A DNA stretch of 64,000 nucleotides from Planctomycetota bacterium. GTDB lineage: Bacteria; Planctomycetota; B15-G4. This document shows, piece after piece, positions 7,700 to 61,082 of the stretch. The position numbers were made by a program, and so were the translations under genes. Where the stretch lies: NCBI GenBank assembly GCA_029259715.1, contig JAJDEP010000003.1, positions 301,370 through 365,369 on the forward strand. The letters run 5' to 3'. Under the pieces are notes generated by a model. The model ran no database searches, was not told where the DNA came from, and saw only the letters and a list, made by a program, of their open reading frames with translations. Numbering within the stretch: position 1 is the stretch's first letter; each line of letters starts with the position of its first letter.

Positions 7700-7977
7700 C
7701 TCGCCCCGGAAAGTCCTGCCGCGGACCGCCGCGGCACCACAAGCATCGGCCCCTCGTCGCAAGCCTTCCGGCTGCCCCACGGCGACGGGCTTGTGGTCAT
7801 GATAGCGACGACAGCCCCTGAAGCAGCGGTTACCCTGATCGGCGCACAAGGGGGGCTGTTCCGGGGGAATCTGGGGGGTGCCGTTCGGTCGGGGGCTGCT
7901 TGCCCCTGCGTGGGTGGGCTCCTGCTCCGGTCGGACGGCTCTTCGCTTCCGACCGGGCCCGTGGGCGCCCGGCAGCC

Positions 7978-10623
7978 ATGGCCAGCGCAGCGAACCCGCC
8001 GATGACCGACGACCGACCCGGTCAGCAGCCCAGCTCCGACCCCATCTCGGCCATCGTCGAGGCCTTCGCGGTGAAGGTCGCCGACGACGACTCGGTGGAC
8101 CTCGACGCCTTCTGCGCCGAGCAGCCGGAGGCCATCCGGGACGAGGTGCGCCGGCGCTGCGGCGACGCGCTGAAGATCCAGCGCACGCTGCGCAGCCGGC
8201 TCCGATCGAGCACCCGGCCCCGCACCATGCCCGGCGGCGGGCTCATGCCGGGCACACGCCTCGGCGAGTTCACCATCGAGTCGGAGCTGGGCCGCGGCGG
8301 CATGGGCAGCGTCGTGTATCTGGCCCGGCAGGAGTCGCTGCGACGGCGGGTCGCGCTGAAGGTCTTGAGCCTCGGGCCCGAGGTGAACGAGCGCGCCATC
8401 AAGCGCTTCCACCGGGCCGCCAGCGCCGCCGCCCGCCTCGCACACCCCGGCATCGTGCAGGTGCACTCGGTGGGCGAGACCGACGGCGCGCTCTACCTCG
8501 CCATGGAGTACATCGAGGGCAAGACCCTCGCGCAGCACCAGCGCGCCGACCTCGCCGCGTGGCCCGGCGCCCGGTCCGGCTTCCTGCTGGGCACACGGCA
8601 TCACGCCAGTCGCATCACTCAGGTGGCGGAACTGATGGCGCGCATGGCCGAGGCGCTGAGTTACGCCCACGGCGCCGGCGTGATCCACCGCGACGTCAAG
8701 CCGAGCAACGTGATCATCGATGCCGACGGGCGCCCGCACATCTGCGACTTCGACCTGGCCAAGGACCTGCACGCGGCGAGCATCAGCCAGTCGGGCGATC
8801 TCTCGGGCACGCCGTACTACATGAGCCCCGAGCAGGCCATGGCCAAGCGCGTCGCCATCGACCACCGCACGGACGTCTTCTCGCTGGGTGTGGTGCTGTA
8901 CGAGCTGCTGGCCCGCACCCGCCCCTTCGAGGGCGACACGCTGCAGTCGATCCTGCACGACATCAGCTTCCGCGAACCGACGCCGCTGCGACAGGCCAGC
9001 CCCGACGTCCCGCGGGATCTGGAGACCATTTGTCACAAGGCCCTGGAGAAGCGGCCCGACCACCGCTTCGCCTCGATGGCCGACATGGCCGCCGACCTGC
9101 GCCACTTCCTCAACCACGAGTCCATCACGGCGCGGCCCCCGTCGTTGCCCGAGCGGGCGCGACGGGCCCTCGCCAAGCACCGGGCCGCCGCGGCGCTCAT
9201 CGCGCTGGTGCTCGTGCTGGCGGCGACGCCGTTCATCGCCGACGCCTGGGCCGACCACAAGGCGCGCCGGCAGCAGGTCGAGCAGGTGGCCGACCTGGCC
9301 CATGGCGACCTGTCCGGCCTGCCCAATGCCGAACTCGTGGCCGCGCGGCAACAGGCCCTGCGACTGCTCGGCAGCACCGACCTGTCGGCCGGCGAGCGCC
9401 GGCGGGTGGACGACGCCCTGGCGCTGATCCACCTGCACGCCACCGAGCGCCGCGAGGCCGCGCTGCGAAGCATGCGTGCGGGTCTCGACCCCAGCGCCCG
9501 CATGGATCCCGGCGACCCGTTCGGCGCCTTCCCCAAGGGCTTCGGCGACTACGTGGCCGCCGCCCTGCTCGCCTCCGAGGAGGAGGCCCTCGAGCTCGTC
9601 GCCGCCAACGCCTTGAACCCCACCGTCACCGTGCGGGCCCTCGCCGCCGACGGCACGACGCTCGACGGCGCGCAGATCACCCTGCTCACCCTCGACGCGC
9701 ACACCGGCCTGGTCACCCACGACCAGCGACTCGGCCCGGCCCCCGTGAAGCGGCACTCGCTGTCGCCCGCGCTCTACCGGCTGGTCGCCCGCGGCGAGGT
9801 CGGCGGCATTCCCGTGGCCGGCGAGTCGACCCAGCTGTTCGAGACGCCGCTGGAGGCGCGCAGCGTCACCATCCGCCTGCGGGCCGAGGACGACGTCACG
9901 GCGGACATGGTGCTCATCCCCGGCGGCGCCTTCATCGCCGGGGATCCCGACGAGGCGCCCGGTGTCGCGCCCGGCGCGGGCAACGCCATCCACACCCTGC
10001 CGGCCTTCTGGATCGACCGGCATGAGGTCAGCAACGCCGAGTACAAGGCCTTCGTCGATGCCACCGGACGTCGGCCCCCGAGCCTCTGGCCCGTGCCCTA
10101 CGACGACACCCTCGACGATCTGCCCGTGGTGAGCGTGACCCACGCCGACACCCGCGCGTACGCGGCCTGGGCCGGCAAGCGTCTGCCCACCGGCCTCGAG
10201 TGGGAGCGCGCCGCCCGGGGCACCGGCGGCGCCGCATTCCCCCGCCCCCTCACCGAGGTCCCGCTGGCCGCCTACGTCATCGGGGATCCGCGCGGCGCCG
10301 ACTTCTCGAGCGATCCCGATCAGCAGGACGCCTTCGACCGGGCCCTCTATCGGGAGGCCGTGGTCGCCGTCGACGCGCGACCCGAGACGGCGGGACCCGA
10401 GGGACTCTTCCACACCCTCGACAACGTGCGCGAGTGGACCGAGAGCCCCTTCTGGGACGAGGCCGTCGGGCGCTTCCTGGGCGGGCAACACCTGGTCAAG
10501 GGCGGCGGCTGGTGGTCGATGGTCAACCCCGTCTACACCAACCTGTTTGCGCGCTCGCCGGTGCCCGACAGCGTGTTCACCCGCGGCCTGGGCTTCCGCT
10601 GTGCCCGGAGCGCGACACTCTGA
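7978..10623 (+). CDS. Ser/Thr protein kinase fused to C-terminal formylglycine-generating-enzyme (FGE/SUMF1) domain
   Basis: 881 aa from ATG 7978. Kinase motifs are ELGRGGMGSVYLA, VALK, HRDVKPSNVIID, DFDLAK, SGTPYYMSPEQ. A TM-like segment AAAALIALVLVLAATPFIA follows the kinase domain. The C-terminal approx. 250 aa match FGE-sulfatase/SUMF1 (MVLIPGGAFIAGD, HEVSNAEYKAFVDATG, YAAWAGKRLPTGLEWERAARG, HLVKGGGWWS). Confidence 0.9.
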   Translation: MASAANPPMTDDRPGQQPSSDPISAIVEAFAVKVADDDSVDLDAFCAEQPEAIRDEVRRRCGDALKIQRTLRSRLRSSTRPRTMPGGGLMPGTRLGEFTIESELGRGGMGSVVYLARQESLRRRVALKVLSLGPEVNERAIKRFHRAASAAARLAHPGIVQVHSVGETDGALYLAMEYIEGKTLAQHQRADLAAWPGARSGFLLGTRHHASRITQVAELMARMAEALSYAHGAGVIHRDVKPSNVIIDADGRPHICDFDLAKDLHAASISQSGDLSGTPYYMSPEQAMAKRVAIDHRTDVFSLGVVLYELLARTRPFEGDTLQSILHDISFREPTPLRQASPDVPRDLETICHKALEKRPDHRFASMADMAADLRHFLNHESITARPPSLPERARRALAKHRAAAALIALVLVLAATPFIADAWADHKARRQQVEQVADLAHGDLSGLPNAELVAARQQALRLLGSTDLSAGERRRVDDALALIHLHATERREAALRSMRAGLDPSARMDPGDPFGAFPKGFGDYVAAALLASEEEALELVAANALNPTVTVRALAADGTTLDGAQITLLTLDAHTGLVTHDQRLGPAPVKRHSLSPALYRLVARGEVGGIPVAGESTQLFETPLEARSVTIRLRAEDDVTADMVLIPGGAFIAGDPDEAPGVAPGAGNAIHTLPAFWIDRHEVSNAEYKAFVDATGRRPPSLWPVPYDDTLDDLPVVSVTHADTRAYAAWAGKRLPTGLEWERAARGTGGAAFPRPLTEVPLAAYVIGDPRGADFSSDPDQQDAFDRALYREAVVAVDARPETAGPEGLFHTLDNVREWTESPFWDEAVGRFLGGQHLVKGGGWWSMVNPVYTNLFARSPVPDSVFTRGLGFRCARSATL

Positions 10624-20091: not shown

Positions 20092-20215
20092 GGGGCGAGC
20101 CTCGGAAACCGGGAAGGATAACGGCTCGACGGAGAGGCCAGAAATCCCTTGCGTGGTCCGGGGGCTGTGCCTAGTTTCGCGCCAACGTTGCGCCGCTCCC
20201 GAAGGGCGCACCGAT

Positions 20216-20291
20216 GGGCGCTTAGCTCAGCTGGTAGAGCATCTGGCTGGCAGCCAGAAGGTCAGGGGTTCGACCCCCCTAGCGTCCACCA
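20216..20291 (+). tRNA. tRNA-Ala (anticodon GGC)
   Basis: 76 nt cloverleaf folded by hand. Acceptor GGGCGCT/AGCGTCC with the G3:U70 Ala identity pair. D-stem GCTC/GAGC. Anticodon stem TCTGG/CCAGA with loop CTGGCAG (GGC). T-arm AGGGG-TTCGACC-CCCCT. Encoded CCA. Confidence 0.9.
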
Positions 20292-20409
20292 TGCCTCTCC
20301 GGGCCCTCTCGCCCGACGCGAAGGCCCGCCCGGCGTGATGGCCGACCGCAAGTCACGCCCAAGCGTCGACGATGAAGGGGATCAAGCCCCCTTCCCGGAA
20401 CTCGAAGCG

Positions 20410-21753
20410 ATGATTCGGCACCCTCTCGGTCGCGTGGCCCTCGTGGCCTGCGCGAGCCTGCTGGCCCTCGGGGCCGGCGGCAAGAAGTCCGCACTCCAGG
20501 TCCCCAGGGCCTTCCCCACCATTCAGGCCGCCGTCGACGCCGCCGTTCCGGGCGATGTGATCAAGGTCGGCAAGGGGACCTACGCCGAAGCCGTGGTCAT
20601 CGCCACCGACGGCCTGACCCTGATCGGCCGCCGCTCGGTCGTCGACCCGGCCTACGCGGGGCCCTGCTTCAGCGTGAACGCCGACGACGTGACCATCAAC
20701 GGTTTCACCCTGCGCAACGGCAGCCTCGGCGTGTCCGCCACGGGCGACGGCATCAGCCTGATCAAGAACATCGTCGAGGCCTCGGCCGGGGTCGGCCTCT
20801 CGGTCACCGGCGAAGGCGCCGCGGTGATCTCCAACGCCGTGCGGGCCGCCGGCGGCGACGGCATACGTGTGCGCGGCCCGGTGGGCGCCTTCGGGATCAC
20901 GGGCGAAAACCCCTCCCAGGTCCACACCAACAAGGTCCAGCAGTCCGGCGAGGACGGCATCGACGTGGTCGACGTGAACAGCACGATCCGCCGCAATCTG
21001 TGCACCTCCAACGGCTTCCACGGGATCCGCTCCGAGCTCGGAGGCGTCTTCGTGGCCGGCGGACCGGCCTCCCTCGTCTCGGGCAACCAGGGTCACTTCA
21101 ACGCCTTCGACGGCCTGCAGATCGAGTCGTACTTCGGGACGGGCGTCGACGTGGTCACCAACACCACCCGCTTCAACGGCCAGGACGGACTGCGGGTGCT
21201 GGGGTTCCACTTCACGGTGAACGGCAATCGCTCCGGCAACAACGCCCGCCACGGGCTGTGCCACTCGGGCCAGGCCGCCGTCCTGAGCAGCAACCGCTGC
21301 GAGAGCAACGGCGGCGTGGGCCTCATGTCCGAGGGCTTCGTCAGCGGGGGCGACGGCGGGGTCGCCGGCGACGTGGGCATCACGCTGCAGAGCAACCGTT
21401 GCCAGGGCAACGGGCGTGACGGCATCCACGCGGCCGGCGGACGTTTCGCCATCCTGGGCAACACGTCGTCAGCCAACCTCGGTGACGGCATCGACCTCGA
21501 CCGGCTCGCCCCCGGCCAGGACCCCGGTGACGGTGGCGAACCCACCAACCTCGAGGACAACTCCTGCAAGGACAACGGCCACGACGGCATCGACAACTCG
21601 GCGCTGGGCACCTCCATCCGCTCGAATCAGAGCAGCAACAACGGCGGGGTCGACCTGGCCGGTGCCGGCGACGGATCGGGCACCGTGGCGACCTTCGACA
21701 GCAACAAATTCGGCACCGGCGGCGCCGATGCCGTCCAGTTGCTCGACCTCTGA
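20410..21753 (+). CDS. secreted right-handed parallel beta-helix repeat protein (pectate-lyase-fold / NosD-like)
   Basis: 447 aa from ATG 20410 (MIRHPLGRVALVACASLLALGAGG, signal peptide). Repeated GxDGI/GNxxxxNxxxG beta-helix rungs (GDGISLIKNIV, GDGIRVRG, EDGIDVVD, FDGLQIES, QDGLRVLG, RDGIHAAG, GDGIDLD, HDGIDNS). Confidence 0.8.
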   Translation: MIRHPLGRVALVACASLLALGAGGKKSALQVPRAFPTIQAAVDAAVPGDVIKVGKGTYAEAVVIATDGLTLIGRRSVVDPAYAGPCFSVNADDVTINGFTLRNGSLGVSATGDGISLIKNIVEASAGVGLSVTGEGAAVISNAVRAAGGDGIRVRGPVGAFGITGENPSQVHTNKVQQSGEDGIDVVDVNSTIRRNLCTSNGFHGIRSELGGVFVAGGPASLVSGNQGHFNAFDGLQIESYFGTGVDVVTNTTRFNGQDGLRVLGFHFTVNGNRSGNNARHGLCHSGQAAVLSSNRCESNGGVGLMSEGFVSGGDGGVAGDVGITLQSNRCQGNGRDGIHAAGGRFAILGNTSSANLGDGIDLDRLAPGQDPGDGGEPTNLEDNSCKDNGHDGIDNSALGTSIRSNQSSNNGGVDLAGAGDGSGTVATFDSNKFGTGGADAVQLLDL

Positions 21754-21904: not shown

Positions 21905-23170
21905 ATGAACACGCTGCACGTCCCCGAACGTCGTGCCCGCTCGGCAGGCTTCACCCTGGTGGAGCTGCTGATCGCGAGCGCTTTGAGCGCCATCGTGCTC
22001 ATGGCCTCGGCCCATGCCGCGGGCATGTTCGCGACGCAGCTGCAGGACCTCACGGATGAAGGCGACAGCGAACTCGAGCGGGCCCTGGCCACCATCATCC
22101 ATGACGTGCGCTACGCCTGGTGGGCCGAGGTCACCGGCACCTCGGCCTCCATCGTGGCCGGGCCGGCGGGCAAGGAAACCACCTACGCCTACGACGACGA
22201 TCGCCTGACCGTCACCGACACCCGCGGCAACACCGACGTGCTGGCCTACGGCCTCGAGTCGGCCACCTTCTCGGCCGCCACGATGACGCGCTACCGCGAG
22301 GACGACCCCGTCTCCGCCAGCGAGGCGTTCTGGTGGAGCAGCGCCCCTGTCACGGCCGCCGTGCCTTTGGTGCTGATGGAGGGCGACACGCTCGGCCTGG
22401 GCTTCACGGTGCGCTCCGCCTCCCCCTGGGACTCCTCGGTGGAGGGCATCGAGGAGCAGTTGCTGAGCGCCACCCTCGATCAACTCGAGCTGCCCCTCGC
22501 GACCCTCGTTTCCAACGGCGCCACGCTGCAGATCGCCTTGCACCGGGCGCGCTCTCCGGGAGACGGTCGGCCCGAGGGCCCGCCCCTTTCGACCAAGCTG
22601 ATCCGGCTCAACACCCTGCCGCTGAAGGCCTTCACCGTCTTTGATGTCGACAAGCTCCTGACCTTGCCCACTCCGCTCCTGCCACCTCTCGGCAGGGCCC
22701 CCTGGTGGGTGGACGACCATGATCTGGTCTTCAAGACCACGGCCCCGACCACCGACGTGCCGCTCTCGCTGTGGGGTGCGGCCCGGGCCATCGAGCCCGG
22801 CGTCAGCTACACGCTGCTGCTGAGCGTGATCGGCGATGGCGCGGTGGTCCTGCGCGTGCACCCGCTACTCACGTCCGTCGGCTCGGGACTGAGCCTCATG
22901 TCAGACCTCGACAAGACCGGCATCCCGGACATGGAACACGACGCTTACACGCCCATCGCCTACGCCGTGCCGTGCCGCCTGCGCGGCGTGGTGACGGCCA
23001 CCAGCACCCTGGCGACCGAGGTGGTCACCCGCATCGACGTGATGCTGCGCGACACCTCGGGACTCACCGCCCGCGGTTCGGCCAACCTGTCCGGGCAGAC
23101 GCTGGCCATGCACCCGTGGCTCGGCGCCATCCCGGGCGAGGCGCCCGTGCTCACGGGGGCCGCGCCGTGA
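21905..23170 (+). CDS. large pilin-like protein, family A copy 1 (prepilin-type N-terminal cleavage/methylation domain)
   Basis: 421 aa. N-terminal RSAG|FTLVELLIASALSAIVL (G-1, E+5). Family motifs DVRYAWW and C-terminal HPWLGAIPGE are shared with the genes at 24823 and 29073. Confidence 0.8.
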   Translation: MNTLHVPERRARSAGFTLVELLIASALSAIVLMASAHAAGMFATQLQDLTDEGDSELERALATIIHDVRYAWWAEVTGTSASIVAGPAGKETTYAYDDDRLTVTDTRGNTDVLAYGLESATFSAATMTRYREDDPVSASEAFWWSSAPVTAAVPLVLMEGDTLGLGFTVRSASPWDSSVEGIEEQLLSATLDQLELPLATLVSNGATLQIALHRARSPGDGRPEGPPLSTKLIRLNTLPLKAFTVFDVDKLLTLPTPLLPPLGRAPWWVDDHDLVFKTTAPTTDVPLSLWGAARAIEPGVSYTLLLSVIGDGAVVLRVHPLLTSVGSGLSLMSDLDKTGIPDMEHDAYTPIAYAVPCRLRGVVTATSTLATEVVTRIDVMLRDTSGLTARGSANLSGQTLAMHPWLGAIPGEAPVLTGAAP

Positions 23171-23673
23171 AGCCGAAGACGTCCCGTCGCCCCCGTTCGG
23201 TCCGCTGCGCCGGCCTGACCCTGCTCGAGGTCATGGGCGCCACCATCGTGCTGAGCATGGCCGTGGTGTCGAGTTCGTACGTGATGTCGCAGGCGACGAC
23301 GACCCGCGCCAGCATGCACGCGGGTCCCATCGACGCGGCGCTGCTGGCGGCCCACATCCATGAGGCGGCCCTGGGCCTCTCGAGGGAACCCAGCGGGCTG
23401 GGCATCGCCACCTCGGGTTCCGACGTGCTGGCCCTCGACACCCTCGACGGCGCCGTGTTCTCGCCGCCCATCGACGCCCAGCTGGAAGTGATCCCCGCTT
23501 CCACGGGCTGGGCCCAGCACGTCGACCTGCGCATCGTCGACCCCGCCGATCCCGAAAACTCGCGCGCCCTCACCACGGCCGACTCCATGGGCGAAGAGGT
23601 CATCGAGCTGGTGGTGACGATCAGCGAGTTCGGCCGTTCCAAGGGTGAATTCACGTGGTGGCTCACGCCGTGA
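23167..23673 (+). CDS. minor pseudopilin-like protein, family B copy 1 (GspI/J-sized)
   Basis: 168 aa. GTG start overlaps the upstream stop (GTGA). CAG|LTLLEVMGATIVL prepilin motif. LDGAVFSPPIDA and C-terminal TWWLTP are shared with the genes at 26971 and 61083. Confidence 0.7.
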   Translation: MKPKTSRRPRSVRCAGLTLLEVMGATIVLSMAVVSSSYVMSQATTTRASMHAGPIDAALLAAHIHEAALGLSREPSGLGIATSGSDVLALDTLDGAVFSPPIDAQLEVIPASTGWAQHVDLRIVDPADPENSRALTTADSMGEEVIELVVTISEFGRSKGEFTWWLTP

Positions 23674-24698
23674 CGACCCTCGACCCGCGACGCACCGGCG
23701 CCGGTCCCCAGGGCGGCTACGTGCTGCTCACCGTGCTGCTGCTGTCGATCCTGATGGTGTCCGGAACGGTGGGCTACGCCCGCTACGCGCTGCAGGCCGA
23801 GCAGCACGACGTGGCCGCGCTCGGCAATCACTCGGCCCGCGAGGCGGCCCTGTCCGGGCTCGCCTATGCCCGCCAGGCCCTGGCCTCGGGAACCCTCGCG
23901 TCGTCCACCACCGTGCAGGTCGGCGGCGCCGCCGTCGACATCCTGCTCACCGACGCCGGCAACGATCGGCACCTGCTCACCATCGAGTCCCTGGACGAAG
24001 GCCTCGGCGCCCGCATCGTAGCCGAGGCCGCTGTGATCCCCTCGGCCAGCGGCGACATGCCCCGCATCGATCCCGTAGCGGCCGCCGCGATCCTGGCGGA
24101 CAGTGCCACCCAGAAGGAGGAGGGCACCAAGGAGGACAAGACCTTCGAGGGCCACCTGGTCGTCAAGAAGGGCAAGACGCTGAACTTGATCAACGTCGTG
24201 GTCAAGGGCTCGATCTTCTCCGAGACGGCGTTGCTCGCGGCCATCGACGGCTTGCCCTACGACGACATCGAGTACACCGGCGACGAGACCGCGCTCGTGA
24301 TCGAGGGCGGCCTGCGCGTGGACGGGGTCGGCGCCATGGCGGGTGTCTCCATCTTCATGCCGGAGGGTTCCGTCTCCGCCGATGACGAGACCCAGATCGA
24401 ATTGAACGGCGCGGTGGTGTCCAACACGCTGCTGCTCGACGGTCACGGCGTCATCGCCGGCCCGCTGCTGACGCAGAACACACCAACTGTGAACTCGCTC
24501 ATCGATCGGCCGGGCGAAGGCCGGGCGCCGCGCCCCTGGCCCACCGCGTTGACTCACGCCTCGTATGAGATCGATTGGATCGCGTTTCCCGATCAGGACG
24601 TGACCGCCGCAGAGAAGGCCGCCCTGGCGGGCTTCCTGTTCCCGGCCAAGCTCGGAGCGGCCGTTGTGGCGCAATCGGTCTCGCCGCCCAACCCGTGA
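23670..24698 (+). CDS. GspK/PilX-like minor pseudopilin, family C copy 1
   Basis: About 342 aa. GTG 23670 overlaps the upstream stop (GTGA). The N-terminal hydrophobic segment QGG|YVLLTVLLLSILMVSG has no Glu at +5 (a GspK hallmark). Shared motif DRPGEGRAPRPWPT. Paralogous to the genes at 27465 and 60021. Confidence 0.7.
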   Translation: MTTLDPRRTGAGPQGGYVLLTVLLLSILMVSGTVGYARYALQAEQHDVAALGNHSAREAALSGLAYARQALASGTLASSTTVQVGGAAVDILLTDAGNDRHLLTIESLDEGLGARIVAEAAVIPSASGDMPRIDPVAAAAILADSATQKEEGTKEDKTFEGHLVVKKGKTLNLINVVVKGSIFSETALLAAIDGLPYDDIEYTGDETALVIEGGLRVDGVGAMAGVSIFMPEGSVSADDETQIELNGAVVSNTLLLDGHGVIAGPLLTQNTPTVNSLIDRPGEGRAPRPWPTALTHASYEIDWIAFPDQDVTAAEKAALAGFLFPAKLGAAVVAQSVSPPNP

Positions 24699-24822
24699 CA
24701 CCCTTGCGCCCTGCGACGGGGCGCCGGGAACCCCTCAACTCGTCACCAGCGCGCCTCCGATAGGGAAAGTACGGGTCCGCGCCCGCTCGCCGGCCCGTGA
24801 TCCCCTACCGGAATCCCCCGGC

Positions 24823-26160
24823 ATGCCGTCCCCGCACCGTCGACTCCGCCCCGCGGCGGCCTTCACCCTGGTCGAACTGCTCGTCGCCAGCACCCTGGGC
24901 GCGCTGCTCATGGTCGCGGCCGCCACCCTGGCCGGCAGCTTCAGCCAGAGCGTCGCGACCCTCATGGAAGACGTGGCGCCCGAGCACGAGACCGCCCTGG
25001 CGCGCATGGCCCGCGACGTGCGCTACGCGTGGTGGACCGACGTGCCGTCCGCCGATCGACTCATCGTGGACGACCACCAGAGCCGGCGGACCGTGTACCG
25101 CATCGACGGCACCGAAATCATCGCGCGCCATCCGGACGGCGAGGAGGGTGTGCTGGCCGAAGGCGTGGGCTCGCTGTCCTTCCAGGCGATCACGATGCAA
25201 CGCCTGCGCGAAGGGCCCCAGGTCACAGAGAACACAATCATCGCCGCGACCTCGCCCGTCTACGCCGACATGAAGGCCGTCGTCATCGGAGACGGCGCCA
25301 GCCAGGCGGTGGGCTTCGTGATCGACAGCGTGGTCGGCGAACGCTCCGTGACCTCGGTGGACGAGCAGGTGGTCGGCGCGACCATCGAGTCCATCGCGCT
25401 GCCCCTGGCTCAGGGCACCGGCAAGGGCACGGTCACCTTCGAGATCTATCCCGCGTGGGCGCCCGGCAACGGACGGCCCCGGCCCGGCGCGAACTCACTG
25501 GGTTCCGTCACCTTCCCGCTCTCCGCCTTCTCGCCGGCCGTCCAAGACCACCCCCATCACCCACACCACGTGACGGACATCCTGAAGGACCAGTACGGCG
25601 TCAAGCTCGAGGTGCCCGATCCCCGGGGTGGTCTGTTCGGATTGCTGCGCCTGAACGTCGACACCCAGGCAGACCTGACCGAAGTCCTCGACAAGTTCGA
25701 CCTGCTCGAGATCGAATCCGGCTTCGACGTCTCCACGACGGACCGCTATGAGGAGACGGGATTCTTCCTGCCCTCGGTGTCCACGGTGAACCTCGACACC
25801 GCCGGAGCCTTTCCGACCCTCGTGCCGGGCGTCGCCTACACCCTCGTCATGAGCATCAGCGGCAACGGCTCGCTGGCGGTGGTCACCACGGACAAGGTCT
25901 CCGCCTCCCAGAGCACCGTGGCGGCGCGCGAAAACGCCACCAAGAGTCTCGTGGCCGAGGACTATCAGTTCGCCGTGACGCTTTCCGGCACGCGCACGAT
26001 CACGAGCACCATCGCCAGCGACGAGGTCGCCCTGGTGCGCATGGACCTGCAGACCAGCGGCGGACAGCGTGCCTCCCGGGCCGCCGGCGTCTTCAGCCAG
26101 GTGGTGGCCGAGGATCCCTGGATGGGCGTGGTCGAAGGGGACCCCCCGCCCGAACCGTAG
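24823..26160 (+). CDS. large pilin-like protein, family A copy 2
   Basis: 445 aa. PAAA|FTLVELLVASTLGALLMV (Ala at -1, E+5). DVRYAWW. C-terminal DPWMGVVEGD. Confidence 0.8.
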   Translation: MPSPHRRLRPAAAFTLVELLVASTLGALLMVAAATLAGSFSQSVATLMEDVAPEHETALARMARDVRYAWWTDVPSADRLIVDDHQSRRTVYRIDGTEIIARHPDGEEGVLAEGVGSLSFQAITMQRLREGPQVTENTIIAATSPVYADMKAVVIGDGASQAVGFVIDSVVGERSVTSVDEQVVGATIESIALPLAQGTGKGTVTFEIYPAWAPGNGRPRPGANSLGSVTFPLSAFSPAVQDHPHHPHHVTDILKDQYGVKLEVPDPRGGLFGLLRLNVDTQADLTEVLDKFDLLEIESGFDVSTTDRYEETGFFLPSVSTVNLDTAGAFPTLVPGVAYTLVMSISGNGSLAVVTTDKVSASQSTVAARENATKSLVAEDYQFAVTLSGTRTITSTIASDEVALVRMDLQTSGGQRASRAAGVFSQVVAEDPWMGVVEGDPPPEP

Positions 26161-26306
26161 GCCCCGCGCCGCGGTCGGGACCACAGGCCGTTCCGGGCCC
26201 GCATGCGGCCGTCCTCGGGGGTCTCGGGGGGGATTGCGCCCTCATCGCCCCGCCCCCCGGTGTGCCCGTCTCGAAAGGGGGACGCGGCGTCTCAAGTCGC
26301 CTTCAA

Positions 26307-26321
26307 GGCGTGCCGAAAGCA
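26307..26321 (+). promoter_or_regulatory. candidate sigma-54 (-24/-12) promoter upstream of major pseudopilin gene
   Basis: aGGCgtgccgaaaGCAat, with GG and GC separated by 10 nt. The GCA lies 60 bp upstream of ATG 26382. Weak match to TGGCAC-N5-TTGCA. Confidence 0.25.
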
Positions 26322-26381
26322 ATCAGGTTGACCGGGCGGCTGTTCGCGCGGTGACGGAACACTTCCGGAGACATCTAGTCA

Positions 26382-26842
26382 TGTCGAAGCAAGATCGAAA
26401 GAACGCCGGCTTCACGCTGGTCGAACTGCTGATCGTCGTGATCATCCTCGGCATCCTCGCCGCGGTGGTCATTCCGCAGTTCAACACGGCGGCCGCCGAA
26501 TCCAAGGAAGCCGCGTTGGCTTCCAACCTCGCGACCATTCGTCAGGCCGTCGAGCTCTACAAGGTTCAGCACAACGACGCATTCCCCGGTTCGGGCATCG
26601 TCGACCAGCTGACGCTTTCCACGGATGTTGATGGTGCGACCACGGGCACCAAGTACGGCCCGTACATCCGCAACGCGTTCCCGAAGAACCCGATCGACGG
26701 TGACTCCACCGTGACGGCCGCAACCTCCATCTCGACTCCCAGCGGTACGTCAGTGGGTTGGGCTTACAACACCGTCAACGGCGAGTTCCGCGCGAACGTG
26801 GACGGTGCTGGCCCGAGCGGCGTGAACTACCACGACCTGTAG
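26382..26842 (+). CDS. GspG-like major pseudopilin / type IV pilin, copy 1
   Basis: 153 aa. MSKQDRKNAG|FTLVELLIVVIILGILAAVVIPQF is a canonical GspG N-terminus. C-terminal motif NGEFRANVDGAGPSGVNYHDL is shared with the genes at 30262 and 30913. Confidence 0.85.
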
Positions 26843-26878
26843 TCTCCAGCCTCTCTGAGCTCCAGCTCCGGAAGCGGG

Positions 26879-26909
26879 CCCGGCGAGAGGGCATACCCCT
26901 CTCGCCGGG
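26879..26909 (+). terminator. perfect 13-bp stem / 5-nt loop hairpin immediately after major pseudopilin gene (terminator/attenuator candidate)
   Basis: CCCGGCGAGAGGG-catac-CCCTCTCGCCGGG, 37 bp after the stop of the 26382..26842 gene. No U-tract (common in high-GC genomes). Confidence 0.45.
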
Positions 26910-26970
26910 TCCACGCCGGCTTCGGGAGAGCGAGAGTGCACCATCCGGGCGCACCCACGGAGCGCCGATC

Positions 26971-27468
26971 ATGACCGCGAGCACGACCAGACACGCCGGC
27001 TTCACGTTCATCGAACTGATGCTGGCCACATTGTTCCTCGGGACCATGCTGGTCGCGGCTTCGTCGGCCATCGGTTCGGCCGCGGTGACGAAGGAACACG
27101 GGCGGACGGTGCCCCAGACCGCTCTCGACTTCGCCCAGGAGATCCACGCGGCCTCCATGCTGCTGCCGCGCGCTCCCGGCGCCGGCGTCGCGGCCACTTC
27201 GGGAGCCGGCGTCTCGATCCTCGAGGACCTGGACGGCGCCGTGTTCTCGCCCCCCATCGACGCGGGCCGGCAGGCCTTTGCCGGCTCGACACGCTGGACC
27301 CAGCGCGTCGCGCTCGAACGGGTGCTCGTGGCGGATCCCTCCACGACGGCCCCGGTGCCCGATGAAGAAGTCGGGGAGGAGGAAGCCCCATGGATCTACG
27401 TCCTGATCGTCACCATGGAACTCGACGGCGCCCCCCAGGGCAGCTACAGCTGGTGGATCCGGCCGTGA
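26971..27468 (+). CDS. minor pseudopilin-like protein, family B copy 2
   Basis: 165 aa. RHAG|FTFIELMLATLFLG. LDGAVFSPPIDA. C-terminal SWWIRP. Confidence 0.75.
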   Translation: MTASTTRHAGFTFIELMLATLFLGTMLVAASSAIGSAAVTKEHGRTVPQTALDFAQEIHAASMLLPRAPGAGVAATSGAGVSILEDLDGAVFSPPIDAGRQAFAGSTRWTQRVALERVLVADPSTTAPVPDEEVGEEEAPWIYVLIVTMELDGAPQGSYSWWIRP

Positions 27469-28496
27469 AGCGCCCGCGGGAGGGTCGACGGCCGTTGCCC
27501 GCCGGAGAGCACGGCTACGTGATGCTGGCGGTGATCCTCATCAGCGCCCTCATCGTGAGCCTCACGCTGGGCTACTCGCGCCACGCCCTCATCGCCGTGG
27601 ACGCCACCGAAGCCGATCAAGCCCATCGGCTCGACCTCGACGCCGTCGGTTCGGGCCTGGCCCTCGCCGCGCGCAACATGCAGATCAGCGGCGCCCTGCC
27701 GGCCTCGCACCAGCTGCCGGACGGCAGCAACGTCAGCATCGACGTGAGCGCTGCGAGTGCCACCACGAAGACCATCAGCGTGACGACCGGCACGGCCGCG
27801 GCCCCGCGGGTCGTCAACGCCGTGGCCGAGGTCTACCCCGACCTGAGCGAATCGCCGCCGTTCCTCACCTTCAACGCCAAGCGTTCGGTGTGGGAGTTTC
27901 CCGGCCTGATCGACATCTCCTCCGACACGACCTACGAGGATGCCGACCTGACGGGCATCCTGCTGATCCGCAAGGGCAGGAAGCTCACGCTCGAGAACTG
28001 CATCGTGCGCGGATCCATCGTGAGCGAAAACGCTCTCTCGGACGAAGTCTGGGAAGACGACGAGACCACCGAGTTGGAGATCAAGGGCGGACTGATCATC
28101 GAGCCCGGCAGCACGCTGGCCGGCTGCGCGATCATCGCGCCGGACTGCGCGATCACGGCCGTCAAGGCAGCCGGCAACCGCGACCCGGCGCTGCAATTCC
28201 ACGGCGTCGTCGTGGCCGATTCGTTCGAACTCGAAGGCCACGCGGTCTTCCACGCGCAACTGGTCACCACCCAGGACCCGATCTTCGTGGGCCCGGTGGA
28301 CCGACCCGGCGCCCACCGGAAGCCCCGGGCCTGGCCCACCAGCCTCGACATCAACGGCCAACGCATCGGGCGCCTGGTGTTCCCGTTCGAACAGCCTGAC
28401 CAGGCCGCCCGCAACGCCATCCAGGGGTTCGACTGGTCGGCACACCCCGCGCCTCAGCGCCAACAGGCTCAGGGCCAGCAAGTTCAAGGAGGCTAG
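27465..28496 (+). CDS. GspK/PilX-like minor pseudopilin, family C copy 2
   Basis: About 343 aa. GTG start overlaps the upstream stop (GTGA). EHG|YVMLAVILISALIVSLTLGY. DRPGAHRKPRAWPT. Confidence 0.7.
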   Translation: MKRPREGRRPLPAGEHGYVMLAVILISALIVSLTLGYSRHALIAVDATEADQAHRLDLDAVGSGLALAARNMQISGALPASHQLPDGSNVSIDVSAASATTKTISVTTGTAAAPRVVNAVAEVYPDLSESPPFLTFNAKRSVWEFPGLIDISSDTTYEDADLTGILLIRKGRKLTLENCIVRGSIVSENALSDEVWEDDETTELEIKGGLIIEPGSTLAGCAIIAPDCAITAVKAAGNRDPALQFHGVVVADSFELEGHAVFHAQLVTTQDPIFVGPVDRPGAHRKPRAWPTSLDINGQRIGRLVFPFEQPDQAARNAIQGFDWSAHPAPQRQQAQGQQVQGG

Positions 28497-28498
28497 AC

Positions 28499-28975
28499 GT
28501 GCGACACCGGGACGGCGGGTTCACATTGATCGAGTTGCTGGTGGTGGTCGCCATCATCGGCATGCTCGGGCTCGCGGCCGTGCCGGCGGCGGGGTCGGGC
28601 GCCGCCCAAAACCTCGACATCGTCGAGCTCCAGATGCGCGACGCCTTCAACCGCGCCATGGCCCTCGCGCGCAGCGGCCGGCAGACCCACGCCGTGGTCT
28701 TCGACCTGACCACCGATCGCTTCGCCGTGGTGGACAAGGACGGCAACGCCGTCATCGATCCCCTGACCAAGCGTGGCTACGTGGTGGCCTTCGACATCCC
28801 TGGCCAGCCTGCGGGCATCGACGTCGTCTCCGCCACCTTCGGGAGCAACGGGACGGCCGCCATCTTCGATGGCCAGGGGCTCCCGCTCGACAGCGGTTCG
28901 GTGACTCTGGACTGTCGCGGCTCGGTGCGGACGTTCGCCCTCAACAAGGCCACGGGCAAGCTGACGGCTCTCTAG
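28499..28975 (+). CDS. GspH-like minor pseudopilin, copy 1
   Basis: 158 aa. GTG start. RDGG|FTLIELLVVVAIIGMLGLAAVP. Two beta-sheet-rich GspH-like halves. Confidence 0.75.
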   Translation: MRHRDGGFTLIELLVVVAIIGMLGLAAVPAAGSGAAQNLDIVELQMRDAFNRAMALARSGRQTHAVVFDLTTDRFAVVDKDGNAVIDPLTKRGYVVAFDIPGQPAGIDVVSATFGSNGTAAIFDGQGLPLDSGSVTLDCRGSVRTFALNKATGKLTAL

Positions 28976-29072
28976 GGGCCGCGGGCACTCGAGGGCCGCG
29001 GGCGCGAGGATTCAAGTCGCCCCCCGGGGGGGCCGATGCCGGAACACTTCTTCCTCCCGCCCGACACACGCC

Positions 29073-30245
29073 ATGATGACGCACAACGATCCTCTCCCCT
29101 CCCGCCCGTCTTCCCGCCGCGCCGCCGCAGGCTTCACCCTCGCCGAGGTCCTGCTGGCCAGCATACTGGGCGCCATGCTGCTCACGGCGCTCACCTTCAG
29201 CACCATGGGCTTCGCCGACGTGCTCACCGACCTCGAAGCCAAGGCCGGCGTCACGAAGGAACTCGACCCGGTGCTGCGCTCCGTGACGCGGGATATCCGC
29301 GAGGCCCACTGGGCCGAGATCGTCGGCTCGTCGCGCATCAAGCTCGCCGACCACACCGGCGCCCTGACCGAGTACTACTGGGACGACCAGGACAAGTTGC
29401 TCCGCGTCCTGCGTCCGAACGGCGATGACGGCCCGGTCTTCGACGCGGCCGAAGCCGCCACCTTCACCGTCCAGTGGCTCGACCGCCATCGCGAGGGTTC
29501 GCCCGTCAACTGGGATGGCACCTGGTACGCCGCCTCGCTGCCCAGCAGCTTCGACATGGCCGTCGAGATCCCCAGCGGTGCTGAACTCGCCATGGGCTTC
29601 ATCGCCCCGGTCGACGACAGCCAGGCCATCGGCGCCGGCAGCAGCGGGGAGCGCTTCCTCGACGTGGGCCTGGGCGTCATGCGCATGCCGGTGGCCTGGG
29701 TCCCCGGATCCGGTGCCCACAACATGACGGTCACCATCTACGAGAGCTGGGCGCCCGGCTCGGCCAAGCCCCTCGACACGTCCCTCGGCTCCGTCACAGT
29801 CGCCGGCTCCGACCTGCCCGCCGCCGTGTGGGACGCTTCCGAGTCCGAGTGGTTGGAGCCCGACATGGTCTCCATCGGCCTGTCGACGCTCAGCCTGACC
29901 CTCGAGCCCGGCGCCAGCTACACGGCCGTCGTGTCCGCCGGCGGTGACGCCCAGCTCGTCGTCACGGCCCACCCGTTCATGAAGACCTATGCCCACGACG
30001 ACGTCGCCATCAAGCCGTTGAGTGGCGCCTTCGTCGACCAGCCCCTGATCGTGCCGCTGGAGATGTCGGGCAACAGCCAGATGTCCTCCACCAGCGTGAT
30101 CCCCGTCATCGAGCTGATCAGCATCAGCGTGACCCCCCTGAACCGGGCCAGCCAGACCCGCTCGGCCGCCCTGCTGAGCCAGGCCGTCTCGTCCGATCCC
30201 TGGCTGGGCGTCGTGCCCGGCGAGATCCTGGTCTCGACTCCCTGA
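29073..30245 (+). CDS. large pilin-like protein, family A copy 3
   Basis: 390 aa. RAAAG|FTLAEVLLASILGAMLL. REAHWAEI (DVRYAWW variant). C-terminal DPWLGVVPGE. Confidence 0.8.
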   Translation: MMTHNDPLPSRPSSRRAAAGFTLAEVLLASILGAMLLTALTFSTMGFADVLTDLEAKAGVTKELDPVLRSVTRDIREAHWAEIVGSSRIKLADHTGALTEYYWDDQDKLLRVLRPNGDDGPVFDAAEAATFTVQWLDRHREGSPVNWDGTWYAASLPSSFDMAVEIPSGAELAMGFIAPVDDSQAIGAGSSGERFLDVGLGVMRMPVAWVPGSGAHNMTVTIYESWAPGSAKPLDTSLGSVTVAGSDLPAAVWDASESEWLEPDMVSIGLSTLSLTLEPGASYTAVVSAGGDAQLVVTAHPFMKTYAHDDVAIKPLSGAFVDQPLIVPLEMSGNSQMSSTSVIPVIELISISVTPLNRASQTRSAALLSQAVSSDPWLGVVPGEILVSTP

Positions 30246-30261: not shown

Positions 30262-30786
30262 ATGACCAGGATGCCGATGAAGTTCAAGCAAACGTCCCCC
30301 GAGCCCACGCCCGTGCCCGTGCCCACCACGCCAAACCGATCGGGATTCACGCTGGTCGAGTTGCTGATCGTCGTGCTGATCCTCGGCATCCTGGCCGCCG
30401 TGGTGATCCCGCGCTTCAGCACGGTCTCGGCGGAAGCTCGCGAGTCCGCCGTCTACAACGACGTCCAGGCCCTGCGCAGCGCCATCGCGCTCTATCGGGT
30501 CCAGCACCTCGAGATCTACCCCGGCGTCTCGGGCTGGGACCAGTTCGTGACGCAACTCACGACCCAGACCGACGCCGCGGGTGCCTCGGGCACCAAGTAC
30601 GGGCCCTACGTAAGGCCGCCCTTCCCGACCAACGCCGTGAGCTCGCTCAACACGGGCAAGAACACGGTCACCATGCCCGGGTCGGCTGACGGCGGCACCG
30701 GCTGGATCTACAGCCCGACGAACGGCGAGCTGCGCATCAACACCGAGGGAGCGGGCCCGAGTGGCTCCGACTACTTCGACCTCTGA
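30262..30786 (+). CDS. GspG-like major pseudopilin, copy 2 (unusually long Pro-rich leader)
   Basis: 174 aa if ATG 30262 (alternative starts 30271 or 30277). Leader ...SPEPTPVPVPTTPNRSG|FTLVELLIVVLILGILAAVVIPRF. C-terminal NGELRINTEGAGPSGSDYFDL. Confidence 0.8.
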   Translation: MTRMPMKFKQTSPEPTPVPVPTTPNRSGFTLVELLIVVLILGILAAVVIPRFSTVSAEARESAVYNDVQALRSAIALYRVQHLEIYPGVSGWDQFVTQLTTQTDAAGASGTKYGPYVRPPFPTNAVSSLNTGKNTVTMPGSADGGTGWIYSPTNGELRINTEGAGPSGSDYFDL

Positions 30787-30912: not shown

Positions 30913-31389
30913 ATGACCACCCGCACTCGCCGTGGCTTCACCATCGTCGAGCTGCTGATCGTGATCGCGATCCTCGCATTGCTCGCGGCGGTGGCCGTCC
31001 CGCAGTTCTCCGATTCCGGCAACGAAGGCAAGACCGCCGCCATGGTCTCGAGCCTGTCCGTGATCCGCACGGCAGTCGACAGCTACTGGTCCCAACACGA
31101 CGCCTTCCCCGGCCAGACCGACGGCGAGCAGTTCGCGCGGCAACTGACCCTCACCACCAACAAGGCGGGCCAGGTCGGCGCGGGCATCGGCTACGGCTAC
31201 GGCCCCTACCTGCGCCGCGGCGTGCTGCCCTCCAATCCGTTCGTCGAACGCGACGACGTGCTCGTCGTGCACGGCATGCCGACCAAGGCCACGGGCACAG
31301 AGGCCTGGATCTACGACGCGTCCACCGGTGAGGTGCGGGCCAATGTCGACGGCGCCACGCCCGACGGCATCAAGCTGTTCGACCTCTGA
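30913..31389 (+). CDS. GspG-like major pseudopilin, copy 3
   Basis: 158 aa. MTTRTRRG|FTIVELLIVIAILALLAAVAVPQF. C-terminal TGEVRANVDGATPDGIKLFDL. Confidence 0.85.
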   Translation: MTTRTRRGFTIVELLIVIAILALLAAVAVPQFSDSGNEGKTAAMVSSLSVIRTAVDSYWSQHDAFPGQTDGEQFARQLTLTTNKAGQVGAGIGYGYGPYLRRGVLPSNPFVERDDVLVVHGMPTKATGTEAWIYDASTGEVRANVDGATPDGIKLFDL

Positions 31390-31428: not shown

Positions 31429-33181
31429 TCACAGATTCACGTAGGCCGGCCCGCCGCCCTGGGGCACCACCCACTCGATGGCCTGGTACGGGTCCATGAT
31501 GTCGCAGGTCTTGCAGTGCACGCAGTTGCTGAAGTTGATCTGCAGCTTCACCGCATCACCGCCCGCGGCCTCGTCCTCCACCATCTCGTAGACCTTCGCC
31601 GGGCAGAAGTGCTGGCACGGGTTGCCGTACTCCTCCTTGCAGGTCGTCGCGCAGTGGTCCGGCGGCCGCGTGACCACCAGGTGCGAGGGTTGGTCCTCCT
31701 CGTGCTTGGTGCCCGAGTGGAAGACGTTGGTGAGCTTGTCGAAGGTCAGCACACCGTCGGGCTTGAAGGGCTCGGCGTGGCGCGGACGCTTGCGGCCCCG
31801 ACGCTGCATGCGCTCATGGCCGGCCACCGCCGGATAGCGGTCGCGCACACCCCTCCCGCCCGTGAGCATCTGCAGGCCGACGTGGAAGATGGCGCTCGGG
31901 CCGATGCCATGGTCGACCGCCTGGTGGAAGTTGCGGAAGCGCCAGAGCTCCTGCCCGAGCCATGACTCGCGCAGGGCCTGTTCGTAGCCGGCCAGCACCG
32001 TGCCGGTGGTGTCTTCGGCCACCAACGCCGCCAGGGCCGTCTCGGCCGCGAGCATGCCCGACTTCATGGCCGTGTGGACGCCCTTGAGCCGGGCCGTGTT
32101 GAGCGTGCCCAGGCTGTCGCCGGCGAGCAGGCAACCGTCGACCCAGGGCCGCGGCATCGACCACCAGCCGCCGGCGGGCAACGACTTCGCACCGTAGTTC
32201 ACCCGCGTGCCGCCCTTGAGGATCGCGCGCATGTACGGATGCGTCTTGAAGCGCTGGAACTCCTCGTGGATGTCGTAGGTCGGGTCCTCCGTGTCGAGGC
32301 CCACCACCAGTCCGAGGGTGATCAGGTCGCCGCCGATCCAGTAGGCGAAGCTGCCACCGAACACATCCCGCGCGAGGGGCCAGCCCGCCGTGTGCAGCAC
32401 GCGCCCGGCTTGCGCGCTCGCCCCGGGCACTTCCCAGGTCTCCTTCACGCCGGTCTCGTAGGTCTGCGGGTTGGGGCCGTGAGTCCCGAAGGTGTTGACC
32501 AGCTTCTTGGTCAGGTTGCCGCGGCTGCCGTCGCACAGCACCGTCACCTTGGCGCGGATGTCCATGCCCGGCTCGAAGTTGCTGCGCCGGCTGCCGTCGG
32601 CTGCGATGCCCTTGTCGACGGTGGTGACGCCGCAGACCCTGCCGTCCTCGATGATCAGCTCGGCGCCGGGGAATCCCGGGAACAGGTCGAGCCCGGCCGC
32701 CTCCGCCTTGCCTTCGAGCCAGCGCACGAAGCTGTTGAGCGAGCCGGTGACGAAGCCGGCGTTCTTCATCCAGGGCGGATGGGGCATCGACCAGGCCTTG
32801 CCCTTGGTGAAGAACTTCATCTCGTCGCTGGTGACGGGGACGAGCGGGGCGTCCTGTTCGCGCCAGTCGGGGATCAGCTCGTCGAGGCCGCGCGGATCGA
32901 TGACGGCGCCCGAGAGGATGTGGGCCCCCACCGCGTCGGACTTCTCGATGACGGCGACCATGGGCTCCTCGAGCACGCGCCCGCCCGTCTCCTGGGCGAG
33001 GGCGTTGTGCTCGGCGATGCGCCGCGCGAGGTGCATGGCACCGGCGAGTCCCGCCGGGCCGGCGCCCACGAAGAGGACATCAACGTCGAGCACGTCGCGC
33101 TCGATGGCGGGGGCCGAGTCGGCGCTGACCTCGGGGGCTGGCTCCTCGGGGGCTGGGTCCTCGGGGGCTGGGTCGGACATC
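31429..33181 (-). CDS. electron-transfer flavoprotein:ubiquinone oxidoreductase (ETF-QO)
   Basis: 584 aa from ATG 33181. FAD motif VLFVGAGPAGLAGA. C-terminal 4Fe-4S ferredoxin-like CxxC...C cluster (CQHFCPAKVYE...CVHCKTCDI). N-terminal PAPEDPAPEEPAPE low-complexity extension. Confidence 0.9.
33130..33174 (-). repeat. 3 x 15-bp tandem repeat (CTCGGGGGCTGG[C/G]TC) encoding the PAPE-repeat N-terminal tail of ETF-QO
   Basis: Direct reading of positions 33130-33174. Confidence 0.7.
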
Positions 33182-33282
33182 GGACGGTCTCCTCCCGCGC
33201 GGCGCCGAGAGCGGCGCCCGTCACAACGGACCCCCGAGGATAGGCAGGAAGGGTCCCGGGGCAAGCCGGGGCCTGCCGGTCG

Positions 33283-51956: not shown

Positions 51957-53083
51957 CTACTTCATGACCTGGCTGATGGCGAACATCGGCATGATCAGAC
52001 TCGAGACGATCAGCGCGACGACGGCGCCCATCAGGATGGTCATGGTCGGTTCGATGGTCGCGACGAACGCCTTGATGGCCGACTCGACCTTCTTCTCGTG
52101 GTGATGGCTGATCTTGCCCAGCACCTCGGGCAGCGTTCCCGAGCGCTCACCGAGGGACAGCATGGCGGTCTCGGCCGGCGGGACCAGCGGGTTGTCGACC
52201 AGACTCGCCGACAGGTCGCCGCCATTCTGGACGTCCTCGCGCGAACGCGACCACAGCTTGCGGTACTCGTTGTTGCCCGAGACCGCCGACGCGATCTGCA
52301 GCGCCTCGAGGACGTTCAGGCCGGCGTTCAGCATCACGCCGAGCACGTGGAAGGCCCGCGACAGGGCGACCGCCCGGATCAGACCGCCGAAGGCAGGCAC
52401 CTTGAGCACCACGGGGTCGCAGATCTCGCGCCCCTTCTGCGAGCGCAACGTCAGGAAAAGCGTCGCGAACGTGCCGAGCGCCGCGGGCGCCAGCCAGGCA
52501 CCGTGCTCGATCATGAAGTCCGAGAGGGCCATGAAGAATTTGGTCGGGCCGGGCAGCTTGCTCGGGTCCTTCTCGAACAGCACGGCGAACTTCGGGAACA
52601 CGTTGACGAGCAGGAAGATCACCACGCCGACGGCGAGGACGGCCATGAAGGCCGGGTAGGCCATCGCGCCCTTCACCTTCTTGCGGGTGCTGATGTCGCG
52701 CTCCATGAACTCGGCAACCTTGCCGAGCATGTTGCCGAGGTCGCCGGTCATCTCGCCGGCGCGCACGAGCGCCAAGGCCACCGGAGAGAACGCCCAGCTG
52801 TGATAGGACATCGCCACCGAAAGGGGCTTGCCCTCCTCGACGTTGTGCCGGATGTTGCCAACGAATCGCGCCAGGTGCGGCGTGCCCGACTGCTTCTCGA
52901 GCACTTCGAGCGCGGCCGAGAGGTTCAGGCCCGTGTCGAACATGATCGAGAGCTGCGTCACGACCTCGAGGATCTGCTGCGGCGGCACCTGCATCTTCTT
53001 GACCGCCAGGTCCATGCGCTGCTTCAGGTCTGCAAAGGCGGACGCCCGGTGCTCCGGCGCAACGGCTTCTTCGGCTGCCATGT

Positions 53084-53087
<4 letters not shown>
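51957..53087 (-). CDS. type II secretion / type IV pilus inner-membrane platform protein (GspF/PilC family)
   Basis: 376 aa. Two GspF repeats (ALSYPAF/AMAYPAFMAV..., LxxAGxxxGxL motifs VRAGEMTGDLGNML and SLGERSGTLPEVL). ATGA overlap with the ATPase gene. Confidence 0.85.
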
Positions 53088-54792
<1,705 letters not shown>

Positions 54793-54796
<4 letters not shown>

Positions 54797-55197: not shown

Positions 55198-55211
55198 GGT
55201 TCCCCCGAAGT

Positions 55212-59477: not shown

Positions 59478-59520
59478 TTGACTTGCCTCTCCCAGTGGTC
59501 GCGGATGCGGTTGGCGGGGA

Positions 59521-61046: not shown

Positions 61047-61082
61047 CGTCTTACATGTCTCGTTTCTGTCAGCGGCTCGCGG

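Follow-up and report, generated by a model that had tools for sequence, protein, structure and literature searches.

What kind of subunit is a pilin that is two to three times larger than the minor pilins it resembles? This question is raised by three genes, A1, A2 and A3 (together family A), in a 64,000-nucleotide stretch of DNA from a Planctomycetota bacterium (GenBank assembly GCA_029259715.1, contig JAJDEP010000003.1, positions 301,370 to 365,369), referred to here as the window. All three lie on the plus strand and encode large minor pilins of 421 amino acids (aa; A1, 21905-23170), 445 aa (A2, 24823-26160) and 390 aa (A3, 29073-30245). A preliminary description of the window, made from the letters alone, had taken them for an undescribed class of pilin-like proteins and for candidate tip or adhesin subunits. 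The reading we favour, with somewhat better than even confidence, is that the family A proteins occupy the J position, that of PilW, GspJ and PpdB, among the core minor pilins of a filament system, of the type II secretion or type IV pilus-like kind, in a lineage of Planctomycetota.

Three large pilin paralogs without a curated family

The guanine and cytosine (GC) content of A1-A3 at the three codon positions (GC1/GC2/GC3 about 0.66/0.52/0.90) matches the pattern of genuine genes in the window, which has 70% GC, and the 421- and 445-aa products of A1 and A2 are identical in an independent gene call on a public contig. Over the full length A2 shares 33% and A3 29% identity with A1, and in profile searches full-length relatives were retrieved with E values of 1e-60 to 1e-158. 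A1-A3 are real paralogous genes. Artefactual open reading frames (ORFs) were rejected, as coding statistics, homologues and the confidence of the structural model described below contradict them, and the same evidence together with the ORFs confirms the three large proteins of 390-445 aa of the preliminary description. A2 carries about 55 extra residues at a variable loop of the family.

Type IV pilins and pseudopilins are recognised by a class III signal with Gly at -1, a hydrophobic residue at +1 and Glu at +5 (PF07963/TIGR02532). This signal is found in family A, as GFTLVE in A1 (aa 15-20), AFTLVE in A2 (aa 13-18, window 24859-24876) and GFTLAE in A3 (aa 20-25). Glu5 is present in all three proteins, and A2 deviates in having Ala instead of Gly at -1, which may make its processing less efficient. 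At least one more protein of the family, P0008 (...GTRAFTLVE), has Ala at -1 too. With PF07963 (cut-off 21.2 bits), A1 (29.2 bits) and A2 (23.1 bits) scored above and A3 (19.0 bits) just below the cut-off. The pilin-type N-terminus proposed earlier for all three proteins holds.

Beyond the signal, four motifs are conserved in the family. The two that had been noticed before, DVRYAWW and DPWxG, are real, although looser than first written: the former is D[VI]R[YE]A[WH]W, with DVRYAWW in A1 and A2 and DIREAHW in A3, and the C-terminal one is [DH]PW[LM]G, with HPWLG in A1 and DPWLG in A3. The other two are RxRE and PG[VA][SA]YT. In A1, DVRYAWW lies at residues 67-73, RYRE at 129-132 and HPWLG at 403-407; the corresponding positions in A3 are 74-80 (DIREAHW), 138-141 (RHRE) and 375-379 (DPWLG).

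A Pfam scan of A1-A3 yielded nothing besides the N-terminal methylation motif PF07963, and the NCBIfam scan gave only sub-threshold matches to the N-terminus. Family A has no Pfam or NCBIfam model of its own. It does exist outside the source genome: a word-indexed search of 5.8 billion proteins returned 11 members, and an exhaustive profile search of 1.84 billion cluster representatives returned 98 at E<=1e-30, each representing a cluster at 50% identity and most of them matching over full length (350-650 aa). Their public labels are generic only ('prepilin-type N-terminal cleavage/methylation domain-containing protein', 'PulG' or 'hypothetical'). Among the species representatives of GTDB, scanned with a narrow pattern, the single match was a Planctomycetota metagenome-assembled genome. 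Other genes of the window fit Planctomycetota as well, among them those for sulfatases, for an extracytoplasmic function sigma factor of the PF07638 type and for a kinase-FGE-sulfatase fusion. This fusion is a 934-aa protein (7822-10623, plus strand) in which a Ser/Thr protein kinase domain is joined to a C-terminal FGE-sulfatase (formylglycine-generating enzyme-like) domain.

The pilin cluster and the J position

Which type of pilin does family A represent? In profile-profile alignments (hhalign), it matched a group of ~180-aa minor pilins with 99.6-99.7% probability and an E value of ~1e-24 over A3 residues 3-172, and these small minor pilins in turn aligned with Escherichia coli PpdB at 94% over 96 columns. 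NF007848, which we confirmed to be the E. coli PpdB model, was the best NCBIfam match of A1-A3 and hit A1 directly (E 4.3e-6, 26.2 bits, aa 10-105); measured against its cut-off of 120 bits, this score shows relatedness and not equivalog-level PpdB/PilW membership. PpdB is the equivalent of PilW, PilJ and GspJ (PMC7248040, Table 1). PF11612 (T2SSJ) did not match A1-A3 at E<=1, and family A does not belong to GspJ as Pfam and NCBIfam define it. No clear full-length homology to GspJ was detected by the NCBIfam scan or by hhalign, which agrees with the preliminary description, and the link to PpdB-like pilins is the closest approach to such a homology.

Three other identities were considered and rejected. 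A GspK-like identity is contradicted by Glu5 and by the missing alpha-domain. PilY1, already set aside in the preliminary description, is likewise dismissed, as the A proteins have no propeller and no Pfam match but N_methyl, and the model displays long-strand sandwiches together with a pilin N-terminus. The Verru_Chthon cassette protein C model (TIGR02599) matched A2 with 12.8 bits against a cut-off of 256.5, and only at the helix (residues 13-43).

The family A genes are part of a cluster in the order A1-B1-C1-A2-G1-B2-C2-H1-A3-G2-G3, all on the plus strand. The stop codon of A1 overlaps the start codon of B1 in GTGA. B1 (23167-23673) encodes a 168-aa GspI/PilV-like minor pilin with the class III motif AGLTLLEV, including Glu5; it matched gspI weakly, and its best hhalign partner was E. 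coli GspI. B2 (26971-27468, 165 aa) was assigned to the same type from its ORF, the NCBIfam scan and the family hidden Markov model (HMM). The B proteins carry Glu5, and their weak matches, those of their relatives included, go to GspI and PilV models only. C1 (23655-24698) encodes a 347-aa GspK-like minor pilin with the N-terminus GGYVLLTV, which lacks Glu5, and T2SS_GspK is its sole NCBIfam match. C2 (27390-28496), of about 350 aa with an uncertain start codon, begins with GYVMLAV, again without Glu5, and scored 395 bits with the family C HMM. The C proteins (341-368 aa) match GspK only, T2SS_GspK being the sole NCBIfam match in three of the five relatives scanned, and they share the absence of Glu5 with GspK and PilX. 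Family C, too, has no curated family, with faint GspK matches over the first ~80 residues, and is a second unannotated pilin-like family that accompanies family A.

G1 (26381-26842, 153 aa) is a GspG-like major (pseudo)pilin (TIGR01710, E 3.6e-14), followed by the GspG-like pilins G2 (30262-30786, 174 aa; TIGR01710, E 9.3e-14) and G3 (30913-31389, 158 aa; TIGR01710, E 1.5e-10), and H1 (28499-28975, 158 aa) is a GspH-like minor pilin (TIGR01708, E 8e-7). By hhalign, the G family aligned with E. coli GspG at 97.8% over 84 columns and the H family with E. coli GspH at 94% over 78 columns. The locus thus co-encodes the partners expected of a core minor pilin set, i.e. an I-type pilin, a K-type pilin without Glu5, an H-type pilin and a major pilin. 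As the G, H, B and C proteins fit four of the core roles, J is the only core position left unfilled, and it is from this and from the homology of their first ~170 residues to PpdB-like small minor pilins that the A proteins are best seen as strongly elaborated J-position minor pilins. With GspJ, PilW and PpdB they share the class III signal with Glu5, this homology and the location beside I-like, K-like, H-like and G-like pilin genes. They differ in their two- to three-fold larger size, in ~250 extra residues of beta structure and in the presence of three conserved paralogs, and from GspJ also in having no match to PF11612 or TIGR01711 past the helix.

HMMs of the five families (A, B, C, G and H) were run over 16 related contigs. 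In nine independent contigs (L002, L003, L004, L005, L008, L009, L011, L014 and L015) the order A-B-C-(A)n-G-B-C-H-A-G-G was recovered, which bears out the suggestion that A would co-occur with B and C. The single exception was L019 (7224-9721), a metagenomic contig in which an A3-type gene is flanked by two G-like genes only and B, C and H are absent within 8 kb. In a neighbour-joining tree, the A genes fell into three clades that match gene position: the A1 clade upstream of B-C, the A2 clade between C and G, and the A3 clade after H and before G. Because the clades match gene position, the three paralogs are taken to be old and to have been maintained separately.

This synteny also bears on whether the A proteins are filament subunits at all, since the pilin-type signal might serve only to anchor a beta-sandwich protein, periplasmic or at the surface, in the membrane. 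Ala in place of Gly at -1 in A2 and some relatives, perhaps poorly cleaved, would fit such an anchor. So would a few metagenomic relatives (P0112, P0098, P0102 and P0097) in which an ordinary signal peptide or another anchor apparently precedes the beta module and replaces the pilin module; these could be genuine stand-alone modules or gene-calling artefacts on short contigs. Since Glu5 and the full pilin module are conserved, the A genes strictly keep their place beside the G, H, I-like and K-like pilin genes and the odd N-termini may be artefacts, we give this explanation almost no credence.

Scans of the cluster for promoters, terminators and Rfam families returned nothing informative. Directly upstream of A1 lies a gene for a ~534-aa protein (20122-21753, plus strand) with the lipoprotein-like N-terminus LVACASLL and many NGxDGI-type repeats, which suggest a parallel beta-helix; it has no Pfam match at E<=1e-4. 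The gene is also present in L001, a public copy of the same region, where the product ends at 502 residues at the contig end. The window has a single RNA family match, a tRNA-Ala (anticodon GGC, 20216-20291, plus strand) that lies between the gene for leucyl-tRNA synthetase and the pilin genes. Directly downstream of the cluster an electron-transfer flavoprotein-ubiquinone oxidoreductase is encoded on the minus strand (31429-33264), and since this gene occupies the same place in L004, synteny reaches beyond the pilin genes.

Predicted structure of A3

A3 was modelled with AlphaFold2 using an alignment of 60 sequences. The model had a mean predicted local distance difference test score (pLDDT) of 93.3 and a predicted template modelling score of 0.76. 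It begins with a long N-terminal helix (residues 23-57) and a second helix (64-77), followed by five strands (80-85, 88-92, 98-104, 109-113 and 119-123) with pLDDT >90 and by ~15 more strands that reach residue 366. Hence, a pilin module of approximately residues 20-125 is followed by ~250 residues of beta structure. A long N-terminal helix packed on an antiparallel beta-sheet, the hallmark of the pilin superfamily, is seen in the model by topology; it is topology and not a structural match that supports the pilin fold here, because Foldseek retrieved no pilin structures. When residues 1-258 were modelled alone, the pilin module was kept and all strands within 126-215 were lost. As removal of residues 259-390 abolishes these strands, the region past ~125 is one interdependent folding unit and not a domain hung on a linker.

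Comparison of the full A3 model with the PDB using Foldseek gave no global match (template modelling (TM) score <=0.29), only generic beta-sandwiches and jelly rolls. The top fold match was a phage 812 baseplate chain (E 8e-6), and Cry toxin domains, PHR domains and viral jelly rolls were also found. Against predicted viral structures, 40 matches were obtained at E<=1e-3, with ~200-215 aligned columns and a root-mean-square deviation of 5-7 Å, and nearly all of the named ones were tail fibre, minor tail, collagen-repeat fibre or end-filament proteins. The beta module of family A resembles the distal domains of phage tail fibres at the level of the fold, which is not evidence of common descent. 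Both would stand at the far end of a fibre, if the location proposed below for A is right; they differ in that identity is ~10% and TM scores are only partial. Searching the PDB with the sequence profile of family A recovered the N-terminal helix only, with TTHA1219 as the best match, and the profile of the small-pilin relatives likewise recovered the helix only.

The length of family A proteins varies from 349 to 648 aa (89 members), and this variation is concentrated in two loops. Loop 1, after A3 residue 210, takes up inserts of up to 171 aa, and loop 2, at residues 254-255, of up to ~50 aa; a Pfam scan of the largest family members detected no known domain in their inserts. The module core and the C-terminal tail SQ...DPWLGxxPGE, on the other hand, are highly conserved. 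This conservation suggests an interface with conserved partners and would suit a module that is purely structural, enlarging the priming complex in the manner of the PilY1 C-terminal domain in type IVa pili and binding no ligand. No PilY1 homologue was seen among the window ORFs scanned, which is in line with such a function. It leaves unexplained why two loops vary by up to 171 residues and why three distinct paralogs have been retained, and we regard a purely structural module as quite unlikely.

How do these proteins compare with other large pilins? Modular pilins are a described category that includes CofB, ComZ and two Streptococcus sanguinis proteins, PilB and PilC, whose extra modules are of the vWA and the lectin type, respectively; the authors who described it predicted many more with modules unknown to databases (PMC8179133). 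As in these proteins, a bulky extra module sits on a small pilin module and would be expected at the filament tip, and A3 combines a pilin module with an added module that is not specific to pilus biology. A short linker between structurally distinct modules, as is typical of modular pilins, is not found in A3, in which residues 126-215 depend on 259-390 and homology to small pilins extends to ~170. Furthermore, the module of family A is not a recognised domain, its carrier would be of the J type and its host is a diderm planctomycete. The type IVb initiator pilins CofB and TcpB also exceed 400 aa, end in C-terminal beta-sandwich domains and have been proposed to prime assembly and reside at the tip. 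They do not match family A in sequence and were not among the 50 best fold matches, and they act as a single minor pilin, whereas A is accompanied by a full H/I/J/K-like set. Because large modular pilins were already a described concept, family A is not a new class, and in this respect the preliminary description went too far. What is new about family A is that it lacks a curated model, that its carrier is putatively of the J type, that its module is woven into the pilin fold and that it comprises three position-specific paralogs in a conserved cluster.

Filament machinery and a candidate role at the tip

A complete machinery that could assemble such a filament is encoded ~22 kb from the pilin cluster, in an operon on the minus strand (51957-61613). 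At its head (59521-61613) are three further minor pilin genes, B3 (61083-61613; 187 bits with the family B HMM), C3 (60021-61046; 330 bits with the family C HMM) and a second GspH-like gene, H2 (59521-60021; 204 bits with the family H HMM and a GspH match in Pfam). The machinery genes follow (51957-59477) and encode a 458-aa GspL-like (fused PilM/PilN-like) protein (58101-59477), proteins of 174 aa (57577-58101) and 278 aa (56837-57673) that have no Pfam match, a secretin (55212-56840; Pfam Secretin, E 8.4e-39), a T2SSE ATPase with an MshEN domain (53084-55225; Pfam T2SSE, E 2.8e-138) and a T2SSF platform protein (51957-53114; Pfam T2SSF, E 4.5e-58). The labels GspL-, GspM- and GspC-like for the three proteins without a Pfam match are assigned by size and gene order only. 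The family HMMs detected no J-like (A) and no major pilin (G) gene in this operon, and within the window only the cluster at 21.9-31.4 kb supplies them. Altogether, families A, B, C and G each have three members in the window, and family H has two.

This gene content also accommodates a true type II secretion system, in which the A proteins would be J-position minor pseudopilins whose beta module stays in the periplasm or the secretin vestibule and recognises or pushes substrates or gates the secretin, without binding external ligands. The GspG-like major subunits, the GspH-like adapter, the resemblance of the fused PilM/PilN-like protein to GspL and the lack of a retraction ATPase in the window are all compatible with it, and the sulfatases encoded elsewhere in the window hint at an organism that secretes many enzymes. 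However, the MshEN domain of the ATPase is as found in MSHA-type pilus ATPases, and three conserved paralogs, hypervariable loops and tail-fibre-like folds better fit the recognition of ligands at the surface. We consider a secretion system of this kind unlikely, if worth keeping in view.

Our best reading is instead that the filament has three alternative tip complexes, in each of which an A protein takes the J position and brings a built-in binding module. A prepilin peptidase would cut the class III signal, upon which the N-terminal helix with Glu5 would enter the filament core. Each A protein would pair with a GspI/PilV-like B and a GspK-like C protein without Glu5 to form an assembly-priming complex, which would remain at the filament tip and be joined by the GspH-like adapter to the GspG-like major subunits, while the ATPase, platform protein and secretin from the machinery operon would build the filament. 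The beta region of A with its two hypervariable loops would then be displayed at the tip and could bind ligands, and A1, A2 and A3 would constitute three alternative tips. A tail-fibre-like fold, two hypervariable loops on a conserved scaffold and three retained paralogs together point to ligand recognition. It is therefore probable that the A proteins sit at the tip of a filament, be it for secretion or a pilus, and mediate binding there, and the adhesin role put forward in the preliminary description is plausible on the basis of gene context, the likeness to tail-fibre ends and the variable loops. A precedent for alternative sets exists in Myxococcus xanthus, which has three minor-pilin/PilY1 clusters in one genome (PMC7541494). 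The proposed role resembles that of PilY1/PilC, the type IVa tip adhesin, in that core minor pilins would display a bulky component at the tip. PilY1, unlike A, is not a pilin and has a beta-propeller, which was seen neither in A nor in the other window ORFs scanned.

Several observations weigh against a J-type tip subunit. TIGR01711 (GspJ) matched family A with E values of only 0.12-0.15 and ~12 bits against a cut-off of 64.85, and only at the N-terminus. Aligned by hhalign with enterobacterial GspJ (85% probability) or directly with E. coli PpdB, family A matched convincingly in the N-terminal helix alone. The attempt to recover a GspJ fold by Foldseek with the model of A3 residues 1-258 failed, the PDB search returning nothing significant and zero pilin structures. 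Because the direct match to GspJ and PpdB stops at the helix and Foldseek found no pilin, the J-type assignment is reached transitively and by elimination, and all B and C assignments that enter into this elimination fall below curated cut-offs. The likeness to tail fibres is partial, with TM scores of 0.26-0.30 for the whole query and ~10% identity, and could reflect convergence on a common beta-sandwich. Finally, a module of ~27 kDa must pass the secretin, and fusing green fluorescent protein, which is of similar bulk, to PilW jams the machine of Myxococcus (PMC7541494).

The pili-like fibres of Planctopirus and Gemmata bind dextran (PMC5394234). One may speculate that the A proteins are the ligand-binding tips of such planctomycetal fibres, with the tail-fibre-like module serving glycan capture built into a core minor pilin and the three paralogs providing three specificities for the harvest of polysaccharides. 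As a complete scenario we hold this to be very unlikely as well as speculative.

Family A, which comprises about 100 clusters (50% identity) and lacks a curated model, would merit a family entry of its own. In most type IV filament systems binding at the tip is set by a separate adhesin, PilY1, or by one of the few modular pilins that have been studied. Here, the binding module is apparently built into the J-position core subunit and is retained in three versions that occupy separate positions of a conserved cluster. If true, this would be another way to diversify filament tips, and it would point to a specific gene as a candidate behind the surface fibres of Planctomycetota, for which few subunits and ligands have been identified.

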